A stretch of DNA of 64,000 nt from an uncultured Planctomycetaceae bacterium (GCA_963815195.1 CAWFGE010000008.1:128001-192000), one strand, 5' to 3'. Positions 52,163 to 60,558 are shown, numbered from the stretch's first letter. Notes: generated by a model not told the origin, from the letters alone. Numbers and translations: made by a program.

Positions 52163-52507
52163 CTACGCCGATTGCTCGGCGATTGGCTGCGGGGTGGCGG
52201 GTTTGGGCGAAGCCGGGGTCGCGGGACGCCGCTTGAGGATTCTTCGCAGCTTGGACAAGGTGCCGTCGCGGTTCCAGCGGCGATAGTAGCTGTAAACCGT
52301 GCCCCACGCCGGGAATTCCACCGGCAGCATTCGCCAGGGACAACGCACCTGGTCGCGGTAATGGATCGCGCTGACCACCTCCCGCAAGTCCGTCGCCCGA
52401 TGCCGGCCCAAGGGACTTTCCTCGGGCAATAGCGGAGCAACCTGCTCCCACTGCTCGTCGGTGAGGTCGCTGGGATAGGCCGTTCGCGGCAAAGCTGCAT
52501 CACTCAT
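52163..52507 (-). mobile_element. IS5-family transposase N-terminal domain only (DUF4096-like)
   Basis: YPSDLTDEQW..VAPLLP...DLREVVSAIHY...CPWRMLPVEFPAWGTVYSYYRRWNRDGT. No DDE domain follows. Confidence 0.8.
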
Positions 52508-52577
52508 CGTCGGAGACCTCTCGGGGGCTTTGAGTTGGGAATCCAAATGCCAGCGTCCGTCGAGCCGGCCCGATCGA

Positions 52578-52892
52578 TTATGCGGAGGTCTTTTCGTCGG
52601 CATTCGTTTCACTGCCTCGCCGACCCGCCGGAAAATACAGCGTCCAATCGGCGAGCCAATCTGCTCCCGCCAAATGCCGGCGCTCCGAAGACGGCCGGCG
52701 ATTCGCCGGCTTTTGGGTTTGAGGTACGGGACGGGGGGTGTTCTCCTCGTCGACTTCGGGCGCGGGCGGCGAAGAGTCGTCCAACACCTCCAAAACCGCC
52801 GTGGGAGCCTGGACCGAAAGACCGCCCCCCATGAGGGATTCCTGAAAATCCCACGTCCGGTCTTCCTGAAACGAAAGGGGTGCGAGGTTCAT
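52578..52892 (-). CDS. Small hypothetical protein
   Basis: ATG at 52892 preceded by AAGGA; 104 aa, Pro/Glu-rich; same strand as the DUF4096 ORF. Confidence 0.35.
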   Translation of the reverse strand: MNLAPLSFQEDRTWDFQESLMGGGLSVQAPTAVLEVLDDSSPPAPEVDEENTPRPVPQTQKPANRRPSSERRHLAGADWLADWTLYFPAGRRGSETNADEKTSA

Positions 52893-53163: not shown

Positions 53164-53202
53164 AGCGCAAGCGAGGGAATGACTCATTCCCTCGCTTGCG
53201 CT
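53164..53202. repeat. Perfect 19-bp inverted repeat, REP-like hairpin
   Basis: AGCGCAAGCGAGGGAATGA-c-TCATTCCCTCGCTTGCGCT. Confidence 0.85.
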
Positions 53203-54402: not shown

Positions 54403-55461
54403 TTACGGATAAACCTTCGTGCGGCGGCGCTCGGCGAGAAGGCTGAGAGCCAAATCCAGATTGTGGCGGGCTTCGGGATAGTGCCCGACGAGTTTGAGAG
54501 CCCGGCCGAAGGCGTCGATGGCGTCTTTCCACCGCTCCATTTCGAGATAGGCGTTGCCCAGGTTGTTCCAAGCCTCGGCGTAGCCGTCGTCCAGGTTCAA
54601 TGTCTTGAGAAACGCATCCCGCGCCTCGGCGAGCCGGCCCTGCGCATAAAGCGTGTTCCCCAAGTTGAAATACAGAATCGGATTGCCCGGTGCGATGGCG
54701 ATCGCGGTTTGATAGAGTTCCGCGGCCTCTGTGAGTCGGCCGTTCATTTCCGCCAAGAGCGCTTTCTCGAAAATCCGTCCGAGGTCGGCCGGGGCGGGGG
54801 GAATCTCGAAGGTGGCGTTCGTCTCCGGCGATTCGGAAAAATCGAAATACCGCTGCCCGTTGCCGTCCAGAAGCTGGCCGCGGTGCCGAATCAACAGCCG
54901 CCCGTGCTGCTCGATCCAATTCACTTCGGACACCGACTCCCCCGGCAGCCGATGTTGGTGCTTTCCCAATTCCCTGCGAATTTGGGCGATTGTGAAATCG
55001 GTTTCCGTCAGCCGCCACAAGCGTTTGGCCGTGGACAGGGCGGCGAAATTGAAAAACTCCAGCCGATGGATGACCTCAACCGGTTTGAGCAGCCCCCAGC
55101 GAACCCATTGGCGGAGCCGGGCGCTCGGCACTTGGAGCGTTCTCGCCAAATCCAAAAGCGTTAACCGGGACACGAGCGGTCCCCCGGCATCCAGATGCCC
55201 GGCGAGGCGATAGAACTCGCGTTCGGAAATTATCTGGAGGGCCGCCGTCTTCCGCAGTTCCCAGGCTTTGAGAAGGGCGCTCGAAGAGTCGGCACAGCCC
55301 TCGTCCCCAACGATGACATAGTCCGTTTGCCGATTGGGAACAGCGGCGCTCGGGCAGCCGAGTTCCCCGGCGAACTGGCGGAACTCCTTTTGCGACATCG
55401 CCGCAAACCGCCCGATGGGGCAGATCGTTTTTCCGGAAAGCGTGATCTCGGTATCCATCAT
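54403..55461 (-). CDS. BRCT + MerR-like HTH + TPR protein
   Basis: BRCT: LSGKTICPIGRF..MSQKEF...TDYVIVG...IISEREF. HTH: LLDLARTLQVPSARLRQWVRWGLLKP. TPRs: YFNLGNTLY, AEAWNNLGNAY, ARHNL. Confidence 0.85.
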   Translation of the reverse strand: MMDTEITLSGKTICPIGRFAAMSQKEFRQFAGELGCPSAAVPNRQTDYVIVGDEGCADSSSALLKAWELRKTAALQIISEREFYRLAGHLDAGGPLVSRLTLLDLARTLQVPSARLRQWVRWGLLKPVEVIHRLEFFNFAALSTAKRLWRLTETDFTIAQIRRELGKHQHRLPGESVSEVNWIEQHGRLLIRHRGQLLDGNGQRYFDFSESPETNATFEIPPAPADLGRIFEKALLAEMNGRLTEAAELYQTAIAIAPGNPILYFNLGNTLYAQGRLAEARDAFLKTLNLDDGYAEAWNNLGNAYLEMERWKDAIDAFGRALKLVGHYPEARHNLDLALSLLAERRRTKVYP

Positions 55462-55483: not shown

Positions 55484-57202
55484 TCAACCGGATTTCTTTT
55501 TGGTTTTCTTGGCCGCCTTGTCTTCCGCGTCTTGTGCGGACTTGGCCATTTTGCCCGCGGCTTTCTTTTTTGTGGCCTCGGCTTCGGTCGCGGCCTTTTT
55601 GGTTTTCGTTTTGGCGGGCTTCTTCTTGGCCGCGGGTTTTTTCGCGGCGGCTTTTTTCTTGGCGGGAGCCTTCGCGGCTTCCGCGGGTGTCACAGCAACC
55701 GGAGCGGGTTCCGCCGCAACGGTCGCCGGTTGGACCTTTGGCTCGTGGAGGTTCCAGCCCCGCTTTATATTCGCTTCCACGAGTTCATTCCACAAGTGCT
55801 CGATCTGCTCCAGCGAATCGGAAACCCGAATGTCGCGGGCCAGCGGGCTTTTGCGGTTGGGGCTGAAGTCGGTGTAATGCAGCACATAACCCGGGTAGTC
55901 TTCGTTCTCGTCCTTGTTGGTCTTCCACATCACGAACTTCCGCACCATGACTTCGCCCTTGGCTTCCTTGGTGTAAACCTCGCGCTGGAGCAGTTCGCTC
56001 TGGGGCAGAGTCAACTGCTTGGCGTCCCGGTCGGCGAGCGGCACATCGACGATCGCCGTGACCTGCTCGATGCGAATGTCCTGGCGGGTCGGCGTCTTGT
56101 CTTCCCGCCGGCGGATGAACTGCGGAGAGATCACCGACACCAAAGGCATCCGGCGGACGATGTGGTATTTGTCCGAACTATCGCGGTTCCAATCCAAGAC
56201 CATGCGGTGAATCGCCCCGCCCCGCGTGGTCTCCGCCACGAGATCCAGGCAACTGATTTCGATGACCCATTCCGGGCGGACCATCTGATAGGCGACGTGG
56301 TCGGAATTGATTTCCGCGTATTCGCTTTCGACGGTGATGTCTTTGAGGTCGCTCAAAAACTCCCGCCGTTGCTCTTCGGAAAACCCGCCGCCGACCCGCG
56401 TGAGAATCTGCAACGTCTCATCGCCCCGCCGAACCGCCAACAGCAAATCGTGGAGCATCCCCTCGCGGTCATCGACGGACTCGGTAAAGCCCACGACCAC
56501 CGCATCCAACGTATGCCGGGGTTTGATCTTGAACATGCCCGCCGTTTCGCTGCGGACGACCAGGCCTTCGCCGCCCTCCTCTTCGACCCACTGCTCGAAG
56601 AGTTTTTGGATGTCCTCGAGACCCACCGCTTCGCGGGCTTCCACCGGATGAATTTTCTCTCCGGCCGAAAACAATTCGCCGATGCGCTGCCACGTCGCGG
56701 CAAAGTCTTCGTCGGCCGGCTTGTCGTCCAGCGAGATCAGATCGAACACCGCGAACTGGAGCTGCGAAAGCTCGGCTTGGGACGCGGGGTTCCGGGCGAT
56801 CGAATTGACATCATGCACCCGCGGCCGGCGGTCGTTGCGGGCGACATATAGTTCGCCTGCGATCAGGGCTTCTTTGATCTTCGCTTTCGCGAACAGCTTC
56901 TCCGCCTCGGCGAGCCAAGGCAAGCCCGCGCGGACCGTGCCGCCGGGGTTGATGCAAAACGCCTGTCCCGCCCGGTACACGAGCACCGTGAACTCGCCGT
57001 CGATCTTCCGGCTCACGTGGTACTCGGCGGGCATGATTTTTTTGGTGATGTCCTGTTTTCCTAAGGGGGACATCCGCGCGCTCAGCCGCCGGCGGTAGTC
57101 CTGCACCCTCGGCAACAGGGACACATCGGCAATGGCCATCGACGTGCCCACGCCGTAAGAGCCGAGCTTGATTTCGAGGCGCGAGGGATCGAGAAGCGTC
57201 AT
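55484..57202 (-). CDS. ATP-dependent DNA ligase, atypical: adenylation + OB + WGR-like domain + Lys/Ala tail
   Basis: Motif I SRKIDGE, III IAGELY, IIIa FAVFDLI, IV GEGLVVR, V FKIKP; OB TLDAVVVG..RVGGGFS..VRPEWVIEI; VI PQFIRRREDK. ATG 57202 overlaps the upstream TGA (ATGA). Confidence 0.88.
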   Translation of the reverse strand: MTLLDPSRLEIKLGSYGVGTSMAIADVSLLPRVQDYRRRLSARMSPLGKQDITKKIMPAEYHVSRKIDGEFTVLVYRAGQAFCINPGGTVRAGLPWLAEAEKLFAKAKIKEALIAGELYVARNDRRPRVHDVNSIARNPASQAELSQLQFAVFDLISLDDKPADEDFAATWQRIGELFSAGEKIHPVEAREAVGLEDIQKLFEQWVEEEGGEGLVVRSETAGMFKIKPRHTLDAVVVGFTESVDDREGMLHDLLLAVRRGDETLQILTRVGGGFSEEQRREFLSDLKDITVESEYAEINSDHVAYQMVRPEWVIEISCLDLVAETTRGGAIHRMVLDWNRDSSDKYHIVRRMPLVSVISPQFIRRREDKTPTRQDIRIEQVTAIVDVPLADRDAKQLTLPQSELLQREVYTKEAKGEVMVRKFVMWKTNKDENEDYPGYVLHYTDFSPNRKSPLARDIRVSDSLEQIEHLWNELVEANIKRGWNLHEPKVQPATVAAEPAPVAVTPAEAAKAPAKKKAAAKKPAAKKKPAKTKTKKAATEAEATKKKAAGKMAKSAQDAEDKAAKKTKKKSG

Positions 57203-57910
57203 GACTGGGGCTCCGTCGGGGCTTTGAGTTCCAGGTTGGAGAGGTGCAAGATCAAGCAATAGTCTTCGCCGGCGGTCCGGCCTTCCAAGAAGCCGCGGTA
57301 AGGCGAGCCGCCGCGCTGGAGGATCAGGGGCTGATTGGACTTCGGCCCCGCCCCCACGAGCATCACGCTCTGTTTCTCTTCGAGCTCCTTGGCCATCCCG
57401 TAGAGAAAGTCATAGGTGAGGCCGTTGATGTGCACGAGCTGCAGCTTGTTGACGATCACAAACCGCCGGATGGCGTCGGCTTTCTTGATGAGCACCCCGG
57501 ACCATTTCAAAGGCGACTCGCCGGCCATGTTGGGGACGGCGACCTGCTTCGGCTGGCGGGACCGTTCGGAGCCGTCGGGGTTGCGGACGATCTCCCAGCG
57601 TTCGACGCGGTGCACGATCTTTCCGTCGGGATCGATAAACACGCGGGACGTGTCCTTCAAGAACCGCCCGGTGTTTTCCAGGTCCACTTCGGGATCGGTG
57701 TCGATCAACAATTGGGAGAGGATCGCGAGGTCCTCGTGCGCTTTCATCGAGCGCATCGATGTCGCGGTTCCGCGGGGATTTGAGAACGCGGACGGTCGAG
57801 GCTTGCCGGCCTTCGTCGTCCACCCAGCGGACCTGCTGCCTGACATTGACGCTGGCCGCCACGACCACGGCATCGCGGCCTTTGCTGTTGCTGATATTGA
57901 TTTCGCCCAC
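57199..57910 (-). CDS. Hypothetical protein, divergent Ku-like core (second subunit); frameshift near 57748
   Basis: GTG 57910 with a purine-rich RBS: MGEINISNSKGRDAVV...RDIDAL, then MKAHEDL...TYDFLYGMAKELEEKQSVMLVG...RGGSPYRGFLEGRTAGEDYCLILHL (236 aa once corrected). The Ku resemblance is by eye. Confidence 0.55.
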
Positions 57911-57951
57911 GGCGGTTTTCCCCTGTTGGGAGCATTCGAGAAAAGTTCGAT

Positions 57952-58004
57952 CATTAGCCGCAGGGCGGTGCCACCCTGCGGGCGGTGCCACCCTGCGGCT
58001 AATG
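57952..58004. repeat. REP-like hairpin between the two Ku-like genes
   Basis: cattagccgcaggg...ccctgcggctaatg with an internal tandem duplication of gggcggtgccaccctgc. Confidence 0.8.
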
Positions 58005-58007
58005 AAA

Positions 58008-58625
58008 TTAAATCATGCCGAAGTCCATCAGGTCTTCGCTTTCCTCCGTGGTTTCTTCTTCCTCTTCGTTGAGTCCCTGCGATTCGCCCAAGCCGACGTA
58101 TTGCAGCCGGGCTTCGCTGCCGATCGCCAGAAACACATGGCCGTCCTGGCCCATCAACAGGAACGCGGCGTCGGCTTCCAAACCGCCGCGGTAGCTGAAG
58201 TCGAAGGCGAAGATCGTCCCTTTCTTCAGCTCCGCCAGGAGCGGGTCCGCGGGATCGACGGCTTCCATCATGTAGACCGACCGCAGGTTGTGATTGAGGT
58301 ACGTCTCCGCATCGACCGAGCCGGCCAGTTCGATCGGTGCATCGAACGACGAGGGCACTGGCTGGATTTCGTGGCCTTCCAGGTCGATGGGCTTGAGGGA
58401 TTTCTTTTCGCACCAAAGCCCGGTCGCCGAGCGGTAACCGAACCCGGTGCCGCCGCGGCCGATGAGCGTGCAGCCGTCGTCCGCGAGGGTGGCGAGTTCG
58501 CAAGCCCGGCCCTCTTCGTCGCGGACCTCCGTTTCCTTAAAACCGTAAAGCTTCTCGCGATCCACCTTTTGCATCTCAAACGCAAACGTGGCCTCGCCGA
58601 ATTGGAAAGTCAGTTGCCTGGGCAT
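58008..58625 (-). CDS. Hypothetical protein, divergent Ku-like core (first subunit) with acidic tail
   Basis: LTFQFGEATFAFEM, GTGFGYRSATG, PIELAGSVD...LRSVYMM, LLAELKKG, FSYRGG..AAFLL follow the element order of prokaryotic Ku (ISFGLV, KGYE..G, IEI..FV, YYL, LL.AL, LRG...A.L). Confidence 0.6.
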   Translation of the reverse strand: MPRQLTFQFGEATFAFEMQKVDREKLYGFKETEVRDEEGRACELATLADDGCTLIGRGGTGFGYRSATGLWCEKKSLKPIDLEGHEIQPVPSSFDAPIELAGSVDAETYLNHNLRSVYMMEAVDPADPLLAELKKGTIFAFDFSYRGGLEADAAFLLMGQDGHVFLAIGSEARLQYVGLGESQGLNEEEEETTEESEDLMDFGMI

Positions 58626-59127: not shown

Positions 59128-59715
59128 ATGTCTCCGGATGGCGTGGCGATTTTTTTGCGAGACCACCAGGGCGAAGAGCAGCCGGTGGAGTTCACCTGGG
59201 GCACCGACGCCGCCAGCATCGAGCGGGTTTGGGACGCGGCCGTGAAAAAACTGTCGGCAAAAGACGCCGACGAACTCCGCCGCGAAGGGTATTACGCCCG
59301 GCTCGTGTCGTTGACGGCGCTGGCCTCGGAAGACATCGGCCAGCCGGACTTCATCGAGACCTGCCTCCGCCAGGTCGAGGTTCTCGTGGACCGGGGCGAC
59401 TGCACGAGCCACGCGGGCAACGAAACGGTGACGCAATCCTTCCTGGAAGCCATCCTGGCCAGCGACCGGATCCTCGTGCCGCTGCCGGCGCATGCACCGG
59501 CGTTGCCGGAGTTCGCGGCGGATTATCTGGATTGCCTCGACGCGGGCGATGTCGAGTTGCCGTTGTATTTCGTGCTGCAAGAACGCACGCCGACCCATGC
59601 GATTTATGCGGTCCAGGAATGGGAACCGCCCCGGCCGCGGTTGGGAAAGATGGCTCCCTCGCGGCAAGGTTTGGAACGCGCCCGGCATGCCCAAAGCTCG
59701 GTTGAATATCATTAG
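59128..59715 (+). CDS. Hypothetical acidic protein
   Basis: 195 aa ORF with genome-like codon usage, divergent from the ligase operon. Confidence 0.65.
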   Translation: MSPDGVAIFLRDHQGEEQPVEFTWGTDAASIERVWDAAVKKLSAKDADELRREGYYARLVSLTALASEDIGQPDFIETCLRQVEVLVDRGDCTSHAGNETVTQSFLEAILASDRILVPLPAHAPALPEFAADYLDCLDAGDVELPLYFVLQERTPTHAIYAVQEWEPPRPRLGKMAPSRQGLERARHAQSSVEYH

Positions 59716-59787
59716 CCGCAGGGCGTTCGCCCCGGTGGCCAGATTCGCGAAGCCAGGAGCCGGGGCGAGCGCCCTGCGGCTGATGAT
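59708..59787. repeat. Inverted REP-like pair, ATTAGCCGCAGGGCG family
   Basis: atcattagccgcagggcg ... cgccctgcggctgatgat. Confidence 0.8.
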
Positions 59788-59859
59788 TTCCAATTCAACC
59801 CAAGGCGCGAACCGCTACGACGGGCGCGGGACATTCTTTCCGGGCGTGTTGGGCGACTT

Positions 59860-60231
59860 ATGCCGCGATTCGTGATTTTAACGCACGATCATCCCCATTT
59901 GCATTGGGACTTGATGTGGGAAGAGCCACGCCGGGAAAAGCTGCGCAGCTTTCGATTGGAGCAGCCCCCGGCGGAGGGCATTCTCATCCGGGCCGAGGCC
60001 TTGTCCGATCATCGCGTGGCCTATTTGGATTACGAAGGTCCCGTGAGCCGGAACCGGGGCGAAGTCAAACGCTGGGACTGGGGAGACGTGGAGTCGCTCG
60101 CCGACACGAGCGAAGAAATCTCACTGCGGCTCTTGGGCCGGCGGATTGCGGGGACCGCGGTGTTGACCCAGAACCGCGAGACGGGCTGGACCTTGCGCTA
60201 CATTCCGGATTCATTAGCCGCCGGGCGCTAG
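59860..60231 (+). CDS. Stand-alone LigD 3'-phosphoesterase domain protein (LigD_N / PE)
   Basis: RFVILTH...LHWDL, LRSFRL, DHRVAYLDYEG, GEVKRWDWG match the PE signature FVVQxH..HYDxRLE..DHPxxYxxFEG..GxVxxWDxG. Confidence 0.88.
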   Translation: MPRFVILTHDHPHLHWDLMWEEPRREKLRSFRLEQPPAEGILIRAEALSDHRVAYLDYEGPVSRNRGEVKRWDWGDVESLADTSEEISLRLLGRRIAGTAVLTQNRETGWTLRYIPDSLAAGR

Positions 60232-60320: not shown

Positions 60321-60558
60321 AGGGCCGAAGGCCCGGCTCTCTGTCAGCCCCGGGCAAGCGCAGCGCCGCCCTGGGTTACGGATGATCAATGAAGCGCGAG
60401 CCCCAAGGGGGCGGCCCGATGTGGCAACTCTCGCCACGGAACAAGGCAATTGCGGATTTCCGATTTCGGGCCGCCCCGTTGGGGCTTCGGCATTTTGTTC
60501 GTTCCCGTTCCCAGGGCTTCGCCCCTGGGAACTGACATAGGGCCGGACCTTCGGTCCT
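60321..60558. repeat. MITE/REP-like element of about 240 bp
   Basis: Imperfect terminal inverted repeats agggccgaaggcccggctctctgtcag / ctgacatagggccggaccttcggtcct; internal hairpins cccaggg..ccctggg and gcccca..ggggcggcccga. Confidence 0.75.

Follow-up and report, generated by a model that had tools for sequence, protein, structure and literature searches.

What does an ATP-dependent ligase do in an uncultured Planctomycetaceae bacterium when its adenylation motif has lost a hallmark arginine and its C-terminus carries a break-sensing type of fold followed by a lysine-rich tail? The gene lies in a window of 64,000 nucleotides, the whole stretch of DNA that was analysed (Table 1). The first-pass annotation proposed that break sensing and the basic tail normally carried by Ku have moved onto the ligase. 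The evidence presented here favours another arrangement, in which the ligase would seal the breaks for an end-joining module of three genes that works without LigD and has a two-subunit Ku-like component, a reading to which we assign a probability of about 0.6.

Table 1 Features of the ligase locus (positions counted from the first nucleotide of the window).
Feature	Coordinates	Strand	Basis or remark
BRCT-MerR-TPR gene, accessory	54403..55461	-	22 nt downstream of ligase; Pfam
ATP-dependent DNA ligase, distinct clade	55484..57202	-	572 aa: NTase, OB, WGR fold and basic tail
Lys/Ala-rich tail, optional across ligase family	55487..55738	-	Composition and relatives
WGR-fold domain, residues 400-488 (predicted)	55739..56005	-	Model, fold match, family conservation
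OB domain, PF04679 type, residues 229-385	56048..56518	-	Pfam, PDB sequence match, model
Nucleotidyltransferase (NTase) domain, residues 1-228	56519..57202	-	Model and alignments
Family-specific R126-x-R128	56819..56827	-	R in 118/128 and 114/128 rows; candidate Arg replacement
Motif I, K66-I-D-G-E-F71	56990..57007	-	Presumed adenylated lysine; no Arg
Gene B, predicted Ku-fold subunit, about 236 aa	57199..57910	-	Stop overlaps ligase start (ATGA)
Gene A, 205 aa, predicted partner of B	58008..58625	-	Acidic tail, complex prediction
Stand-alone LigD 3'-phosphoesterase domain	59860..60231	+	PF13298 E 3.5e-9; 1.2 kb from gene A

The ligase is predicted to display the NTase and OB fold of the ATP-dependent DNA ligase superfamily. 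The AlphaFold2 model of residues 1-490, built from 136 sequences (pLDDT 96.5) and searched against 48,161 solved chains, retrieves DNA ligases as its top folds, led by human LIG1 (Z 20.6), T4 ligase (20.5), LIG3 (19.9) and M. tuberculosis LigD (19.5). With archaeal enzymes included the DNA ligase scores span Z 20.6-18.5, while capping enzymes reach at most 13.1 and RNA ligases at most 13.4. PF04679 covers residues 247-369 above the Pfam cut-off (E 4.4e-10), all NCBIfam ligase models score far below their cut-offs, and human LIG1 is the best PDB sequence match (E 1.5e-4). The OB fold opens with H-T-L-D-A-V-V-V-G at position 230, the LigB/Lig1-like start remarked on at first pass. The insertion described before motif VI is likewise present, as a hairpin at about residues 322-356 (330-354 in the model) where the reference ligases are shorter, and motif VI itself is canonical (RREDK at 365-369, with R366-E-D-K369). 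The N-terminal DNA-binding domain is indeed absent, with no Pfam match to PF04675 and about 60 residues, forming a hairpin and helix 29-43, preceding motif I in the model. Neither Pfam nor NCBIfam detects a fused POL or PE domain.

The active site departs more extensively from the canonical pattern. Motif I, reported at first pass as KIDGEF rather than KxDGxR, does read S-R-K66-I-D-G-E-F71, and this change is only one of five linked alterations in the family, counted over up to 136 family rows and 31 reference ligases. The motif I arginine is found in none of the 124 family members having a residue at that position, where Phe or Leu mostly takes its place; the references, picked with KxDGxR, carry it by construction. 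The change is thus a family trait and not a sequencing error. The motif Ia arginine is retained in 7 of 126 family rows (31/31 references), the Asp/Glu preceding the catalytic Glu of motif III in 0 of 128 (31/31), and the Phe following motif III in 0 of 128 (30/31). The spacing between the motif IV Glu and the motif V Lys is 12-14 residues in all 134 family rows compared with 20-24 in all 31 references. The loop is shortened to 13 residues in the window's ligase, and the shorter spacing removes a segment with a further conserved arginine whose role is known from Chlorella virus ligase work. The catalytic residues are retained, namely K66 (121/124), D68, E117 (126/128), F153, E212 (135/136), K225 (135/136), K227 and the RxDK signature (132-134/136). 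A further family-specific conserved motif, Y36-[KR]-[RK], lies near the N-terminus. In studied ligases the motif I arginine bonds the ribose of AMP and a Phe pair distorts the nick (PMC7470946); in T4 Rnl2, Chlorella virus ligase and human LIG1 the motif Ia arginine touches the position of the 5' phosphate (PMC4797309). Since the lost residues hold AMP and the 5' phosphate in those enzymes, ordinary sealing chemistry cannot simply be assumed. The simplest reading of the alignments is an active enzyme that takes its phosphate contacts from new positions, and R126/R128 and the Y36-[KR]-[RK] helix may replace the lost phosphate-binding arginines.

In the model the C-terminal module (403-487) comprises four strands followed by a helix and then a short strand. 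On the range 398-490 the fold search returns five WGR chains, from PARP1 (7s68, 2cr9, 4dqy), PARP3 (2eoc) and Bacteroides (2ra8), with Z 8.0-8.8, rmsd 3.1-3.6 and 70-87 aligned residues, and the runner-up fold is Mog1 (Z 6.2). Such Z values are moderate, and the domain was modelled as part of ligase residues 1-490, but five members of one family agree, and we assign residues 400-488 to the WGR fold. The WGR-like module seen at first pass is thereby borne out by fold, ending in KRGW at 483, although Pfam WGR (PF05406) has no match in it. Compared as profiles with six WGR domains that Pfam does detect, the module gives E 5.8e-4 and a probability of 29%, confined to the last 32 columns (the last helix), and four control segments compared with the same six-sequence profile reach at most 0.5%. 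The fold is common to PARP1-3. In contrast to these proteins the ligase has no PARP catalytic domain and no W-G-R triplet; at 443-445, in a register inferred from the strands, W occurs in 16, G in 0 and R in 0 of 133 rows. The domain is conserved throughout the ligase family and contains the near-invariant basic residues R407, K412, K422, K430, R450 and K480. As modelled, the domain combines the WGR fold with an altered, strongly basic surface.

The histone-H1-like tail of the first-pass annotation is present here, with 25 Lys and 27 Ala among the 89 residues after KRGW, but is optional in the family. Of the ligases at the 55 genome loci in which the WGR fold is complete, 34 end no more than 25 residues further on, 16 carry a basic tail and 5 are extended in some other way. 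The same short end, at most 25 residues past the WGR fold, is seen in 102 of 131 distant representatives and in only 2 of the 120 closest relatives. The basic tail is a recent, optional, lineage-level addition and not a family feature. Canonical Ku tails are basic and 1 to 155 residues long according to portions of PMC9638933, and for the window's lineage the Ku-tail analogy is a fair one.

The placement of the ligase was addressed with a quick IQ-TREE reconstruction (LG+G4, midpoint root, 320 columns) of the NTase and OB core of 24 family members and 31 references, comprising 11 LigD, 10 LigB, 3 LigC, 2 haloarchaeal, 1 phage and 4 OB2-type enzymes. The references were labelled from length and motifs, and from annotation for plasmid and phage records; two candidates with no KxDGxR pattern in the given frame were left out. 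A branch with SH-aLRT 100 separates the family from all these references; the family is nested in none of the sampled groups, and its branch is long. In the phylogeny called for at first pass the family is a clade apart from LigB, LigC and LigD, and neither a non-WGR fold nor clustering with LigB or LigC in standard architecture was observed. By sequence as well as by fold, the OB and NTase domains come closest to LigB and the archaeal and eukaryotic ligase I enzymes, but the window's ligase lacks their N-terminal DNA-binding domain, forms a separate clade and has lost the canonical arginines. LigD and LigC share the NTase and PF04679 OB core and the absence of an N-terminal DNA-binding domain. 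The window's ligase falls outside both clades, has no fused POL or PE, and differs further in its WGR fold and remodelled active site.

A combination of ligase and WGR domain is already known, so the fusion itself is not new and the present family is a separate instance of it. PMC7470946 describes a cluster of NT-OB_2-WGR ligases in Deltaproteobacteria and Planctomycetia, and these occur without Ku. These PRK09125-type enzymes are, like the window's ligase, ATP-dependent ligases fused to WGR in the same phyla. In contrast, they have an OB_2 domain, a Pfam-detectable WGR, KxDGxR and a different clade, while the window's ligase has PF04679 and no PF14743 or PF05406. The source genome itself also encodes an OB2-WGR ligase, at C22:371805-373199 (-), with PF01068, PF14743, PF05406 and a canonical KxDGxR, and this enzyme sits in a different clade from the window's ligase.

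Two genes, A and B, lie upstream of the ligase. One extra base at 57748 splits the frame of gene B in the window. A short-read contig that is identical elsewhere (one contig, depth about 4, possibly from the source sample) lacks this base, and gene B is open for 236 codons once it is removed; the frameshift is therefore probably an assembly error, and a true pseudogene is unlikely. Of 57 genome loci, 49 have both genes next to the ligase, 5 have only B, 1 only A and 2 neither; two of these eight incomplete loci are cut short by a contig end. In a different phylum, an unrelated Pfam search retrieved 14 loci with a family ligase (8 of the 14 from one genome), and in 13 of them A and B accompany the ligase in the same order. 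The A-B-ligase arrangement recurs in all five loci found starting from gene B, two of which repeat earlier loci. Decayed or orphan forms are seen as well, with A joined to a truncated ligase and B lost in L050, and a ligase with neither partner in L019 and L025.

Gene B was modelled from the close relative L001 (pLDDT 84.3). Its top match is M. tuberculosis Ku (Z 12.7, rmsd 3.5, 163 aligned), and B. subtilis Ku reaches Z 11.8 with 161 aligned, while SPOC-type barrels align over only 107-115 residues. In Foldseek the best match is again M. tuberculosis Ku (E 1.0e-5), and all matches listed are Ku complexes. Gene B is thus predicted to adopt the Ku/SPOC barrel including the ring-forming insertion. 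The model ends past the last barrel strand at 227, and the minimal Ku C-terminal region, as defined in parts of PMC9638933, is absent. The predicted A+B complex of L001 scores 0.75, and the best of three controls scores 0.00. Among solved complexes 116 of 157 attain this mark, and among mismatched pairs 2 of 215, although similarity to known Ku dimer structures may contribute to the result. The runs share at least 80% of contacts and the pLDDT of the partners is at least 72. The interface is large and pseudo-symmetric, with A109-114 packing against B147-154 and each C-terminal strand contacting the other subunit's last hairpin. In our reading of the contact list, like elements would pair across a pseudo two-fold as in the Ku dimer, and gene A is probably a second Ku-like subunit.

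The resemblance to Ku is one of predicted fold. Profile comparison of A and B with 24 canonical Ku sequences gives probabilities of 0.1% and 1.5% (0.1% and 0.4% with deeper alignments), A and B are not significantly alike (best 5.5%), and PDB sequence searches with both profiles return 0 matches; an alignment (A2) with one wrongly framed row fed one PDB profile search and one of the profile comparisons. Neither protein matches Pfam (PF02735 included), NCBIfam or PADLOC, and the ESM Atlas holds nothing usable for A and only sub-0.9 leads with a poor model for B. Gene A ends in an acidic tail with a motif of the M-D-F-x-M type, [MLVIF][DNS]F-x-[ML], in 111 of 112 sequences. This motif (58011-58040) is likely a docking peptide and resembles the acidic-hydrophobic docking tails of SSB and Ku80.

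The cassette shares with bacterial end joining (a Ku homodimer of PF02735 type with LigD or LigC) a Ku-fold protein beside an ATP-dependent ligase and optional polymerase and phosphoesterase helpers. It differs from bacterial Ku in having two very different subunits with no PF02735 or profile match and no helical or basic C-terminal arm. With eukaryotic Ku70/Ku80 and ligase IV it would share the heterodimeric Ku-fold ring predicted for A+B, but A and B lack the vWA and C-terminal domains. Within bacteria, a section of PMC1920237 states that the pairing among three Agrobacterium Ku proteins is unknown. The first-pass idea of a transfer from Ku to ligase holds in one respect, that A and B lack basic tails (net charge of at least +5 in the last 25 residues in 0/112 A and 0/107 B). 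The tail is, however, absent in 34 of the 55 loci and in 102 of the 131 representatives, and a moved tail as a working part of the system is therefore unsupported. A transfer of break sensing is not needed, as a Ku-fold partner with its predicted ring is encoded next door.

The linkage also bears on a reading in which the ligase is autonomous, its WGR fold sensing single-strand breaks and the enzyme sealing nicks in excision repair, with A and B doing a separate job. Such a role would suit a WGR fold kept family-wide with near-invariant basic residues, the two loci of 57 with neither partner nearby, and the OB2-WGR ligases that passages of PMC7470946 record without Ku. We nevertheless judge it very unlikely, as linkage, order and overlap with A and B are tight across phyla, and the ligase has no DNA-encircling domain and has lost its nick-contacting residues.

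Additional genes around the cassette vary. The BRCT-MerR-TPR gene also neighbours the cassette in 7 of the 57 other loci, and the stand-alone phosphoesterase, a possible end-healing helper, was not seen among the 57. Nine of the 57 loci have an AEP-HAD gene in the vicinity of the cassette; eight AEP-HAD neighbours were scanned, and the HAD portion of three shows a weak match to HAD_SAK_2, an RNA-repair family. The source genome has AEP-HAD relatives off the cassette at C13:710930-711702 and C18:16390-17079, the former in three frames, perhaps through more assembly errors. A 195-aa ORF (59128-59715, +) between gene A and the phosphoesterase has no family match, a single genome copy and no counterpart in the 57 loci. 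REP-type palindromes occupy intergenic positions 57951-58005 (between A and B), 59702-59793, 60399-60486 and 53164-53202, and a 17-mer from 57951 is present 28 times in the source genome. A short ORF at 52163-52612 (-), 1.8 kb downstream of the BRCT-MerR-TPR gene, looks like the N-terminal part of an IS5-type transposase. No sigma-70-like promoter was found (1.4 expected) and no RNA holder is listed.

The weak HAD_SAK_2 matches belong to the evidence for a changed chemistry, in which the ring-loaded ligase would join single-stranded or RNA-containing ends, or stop at adenylating or capping, instead of sealing ordinary nicks. With DNA ligase folds ahead by about 7 Z units, and with the PF04679-type OB and canonical RxDK motif VI retained, we hold this to be unlikely, although the family as a whole has lost, together, five canonical features that contact the nick and AMP, and Pfam gives the ligase a match to RNA_ligase (E 1.7e-5, below threshold) and none to DNA_ligase_A_M. 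The motif Ia arginine lost here is, according to excerpts of PMC4797309, also used by RNA ligases, so that its loss is no pointer to RNA.

The ligase family is large: 1981 relatives were recognised among 8000 scored candidates, and 303 clusters at 50% identity were obtained (E up to 1e-30; partial matches may be included). Named records among the 57 genome loci are chiefly from Planctomycetota, with Myxococcota and Verrucomicrobiota, a Rhodothermales, a Rhizobiaceae, a Granulosicoccus and a Chloracidobacterium. Distant members display further architectures: the OB and WGR half is duplicated in P0128, a TIR domain is inserted in P0169, a C-terminal AAA+ ATPase is present in P0168, P0187, P0190 and P0205, and the N-terminal domain of P0179, P0189, P0210 and P0214, which has no Pfam match, looks to us like a TerY-type vWA. 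The long N-terminal extensions of distant ligases were considered as fused A or B and rejected for lack of a profile match, one strong B match (P0254) excepted.

The distribution of the cassette is sparse. A full-length ligase is found in 2 of 151 genomes of the phylum (source genome counted). Gene B turns up in 3 of 120 further genomes of the source's family, though not in the one congener searched, and the module in 1 of 100 other genomes of Chloracidobacterium's phylum. The source genome, 94.6% complete, has no match to canonical Ku, LigD polymerase or Pfam AEP-TOTE. Canonical Ku is absent from 41 and present in 9 of 50 carrier genomes tested (of 57), and occurs in 21 of 151 genomes of the phylum sample. 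Exclusion of canonical Ku by the cassette was accordingly rejected; the rate in carriers resembles the phylum background, and the cassette does not simply replace Ku-LigD. The 7.1-Mb genome G218 (loci L103, L112, L114, L117-L121, L124, L125) contains 14 ligase-family matches, of which all eight fetched are full A-B-ligase cassettes. Most ligases of these cassettes exceed 1000 aa and are of the AAA+ fusion type; one cassette lies near integrase-core genes and another near terminase-like and Fic genes.

Such a pattern could reflect a mobile-element or phage-conflict role, the module resealing element or chromosome ends cut by excision, restriction or CRISPR, or acting on phage DNA, as opposed to housekeeping repair. 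This alternative differs from the end-joining reading in biological role, and the biochemistry could be the same in both. The patchy spread (2/151 in the phylum, gene B in 3/120 in the family), the multiple cassettes of G218 with their integrase-core and terminase-like neighbours and the AAA+ and TIR fusions of distant members are consistent with it. The cassette has no match in 72,556 plasmid records, however, and 50,697 phage records yield only weak matches to ordinary ligases; PADLOC matches none of ligase, A and B, and the cassette GC is genome-like (0.609 vs 0.597). We thus regard a mobile or conflict role as decidedly unlikely.

Returning to end joining, the computed sequence features, conservation, linkage, clade and predicted folds together suggest the following course of DNA binding, recruitment and catalysis, and with it a role for the module. 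From their predicted fold and pairing, A and B would assemble into a heterodimeric, Ku-like ring, which would slide over a broken DNA end and bring in the ligase. As neither partner has the helical and basic C-terminal arm usual in Ku, the recruitment step probably involves the acidic C-terminal motif of A and the basic WGR-fold domain; alternatively, the WGR fold may grip the DNA end as in PARP1. The retained core, with motifs I, III, IIIa, IV, V and VI present in the sequence, would adenylate K66 from ATP, and AMP would then pass to the 5' phosphate and the break be sealed. With R126/R128 and the Y36-[KR]-[RK] helix standing in for the lost arginines, these substituted phosphate contacts may leave the ligase weak alone and dependent on the ring. 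Dirty ends could be handled by optional helpers, AEP-HAD in some loci and the stand-alone phosphoesterase here, and the basic tail would act as a dispensable, lineage-specific booster of DNA affinity. The broader proposition is that a separate ligase branch, having rebuilt an AMP and phosphate surface otherwise conserved between phage and human enzymes, works only when a heterodimeric Ku-like ring loads it through a WGR adaptor. Many bacterial phyla would then possess a second end-joining pathway of eukaryotic style, overlooked by NHEJ surveys that rely on sequence; we place this slightly below an even chance.

The full-text literature yielded no description of the ligase family or of a divergent bacterial Ku pair, though subscription papers or supplements might hold one, and none was found in passages of PMC8455567, PMC3765255, PMC11936186, PMC1920237, PMC4609770 and PMC7824862. 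The system is a form of Ku-ligase end joining, not a new category. What is new are the five linked active-site changes with the R-x-R motif, the separation from OB2-WGR ligases and the optional tail. With 41 of 50 carriers lacking canonical Ku, counts of end-joining bacteria based on Ku and LigD sequences would be too low. A bacterial two-subunit Ku, if true, would offer a simple model for the origin and working of the heterodimeric ring. The ligase provides a test of which 'essential' ligase residues are replaceable, and may have an unusual end-joining specificity useful as a reagent.
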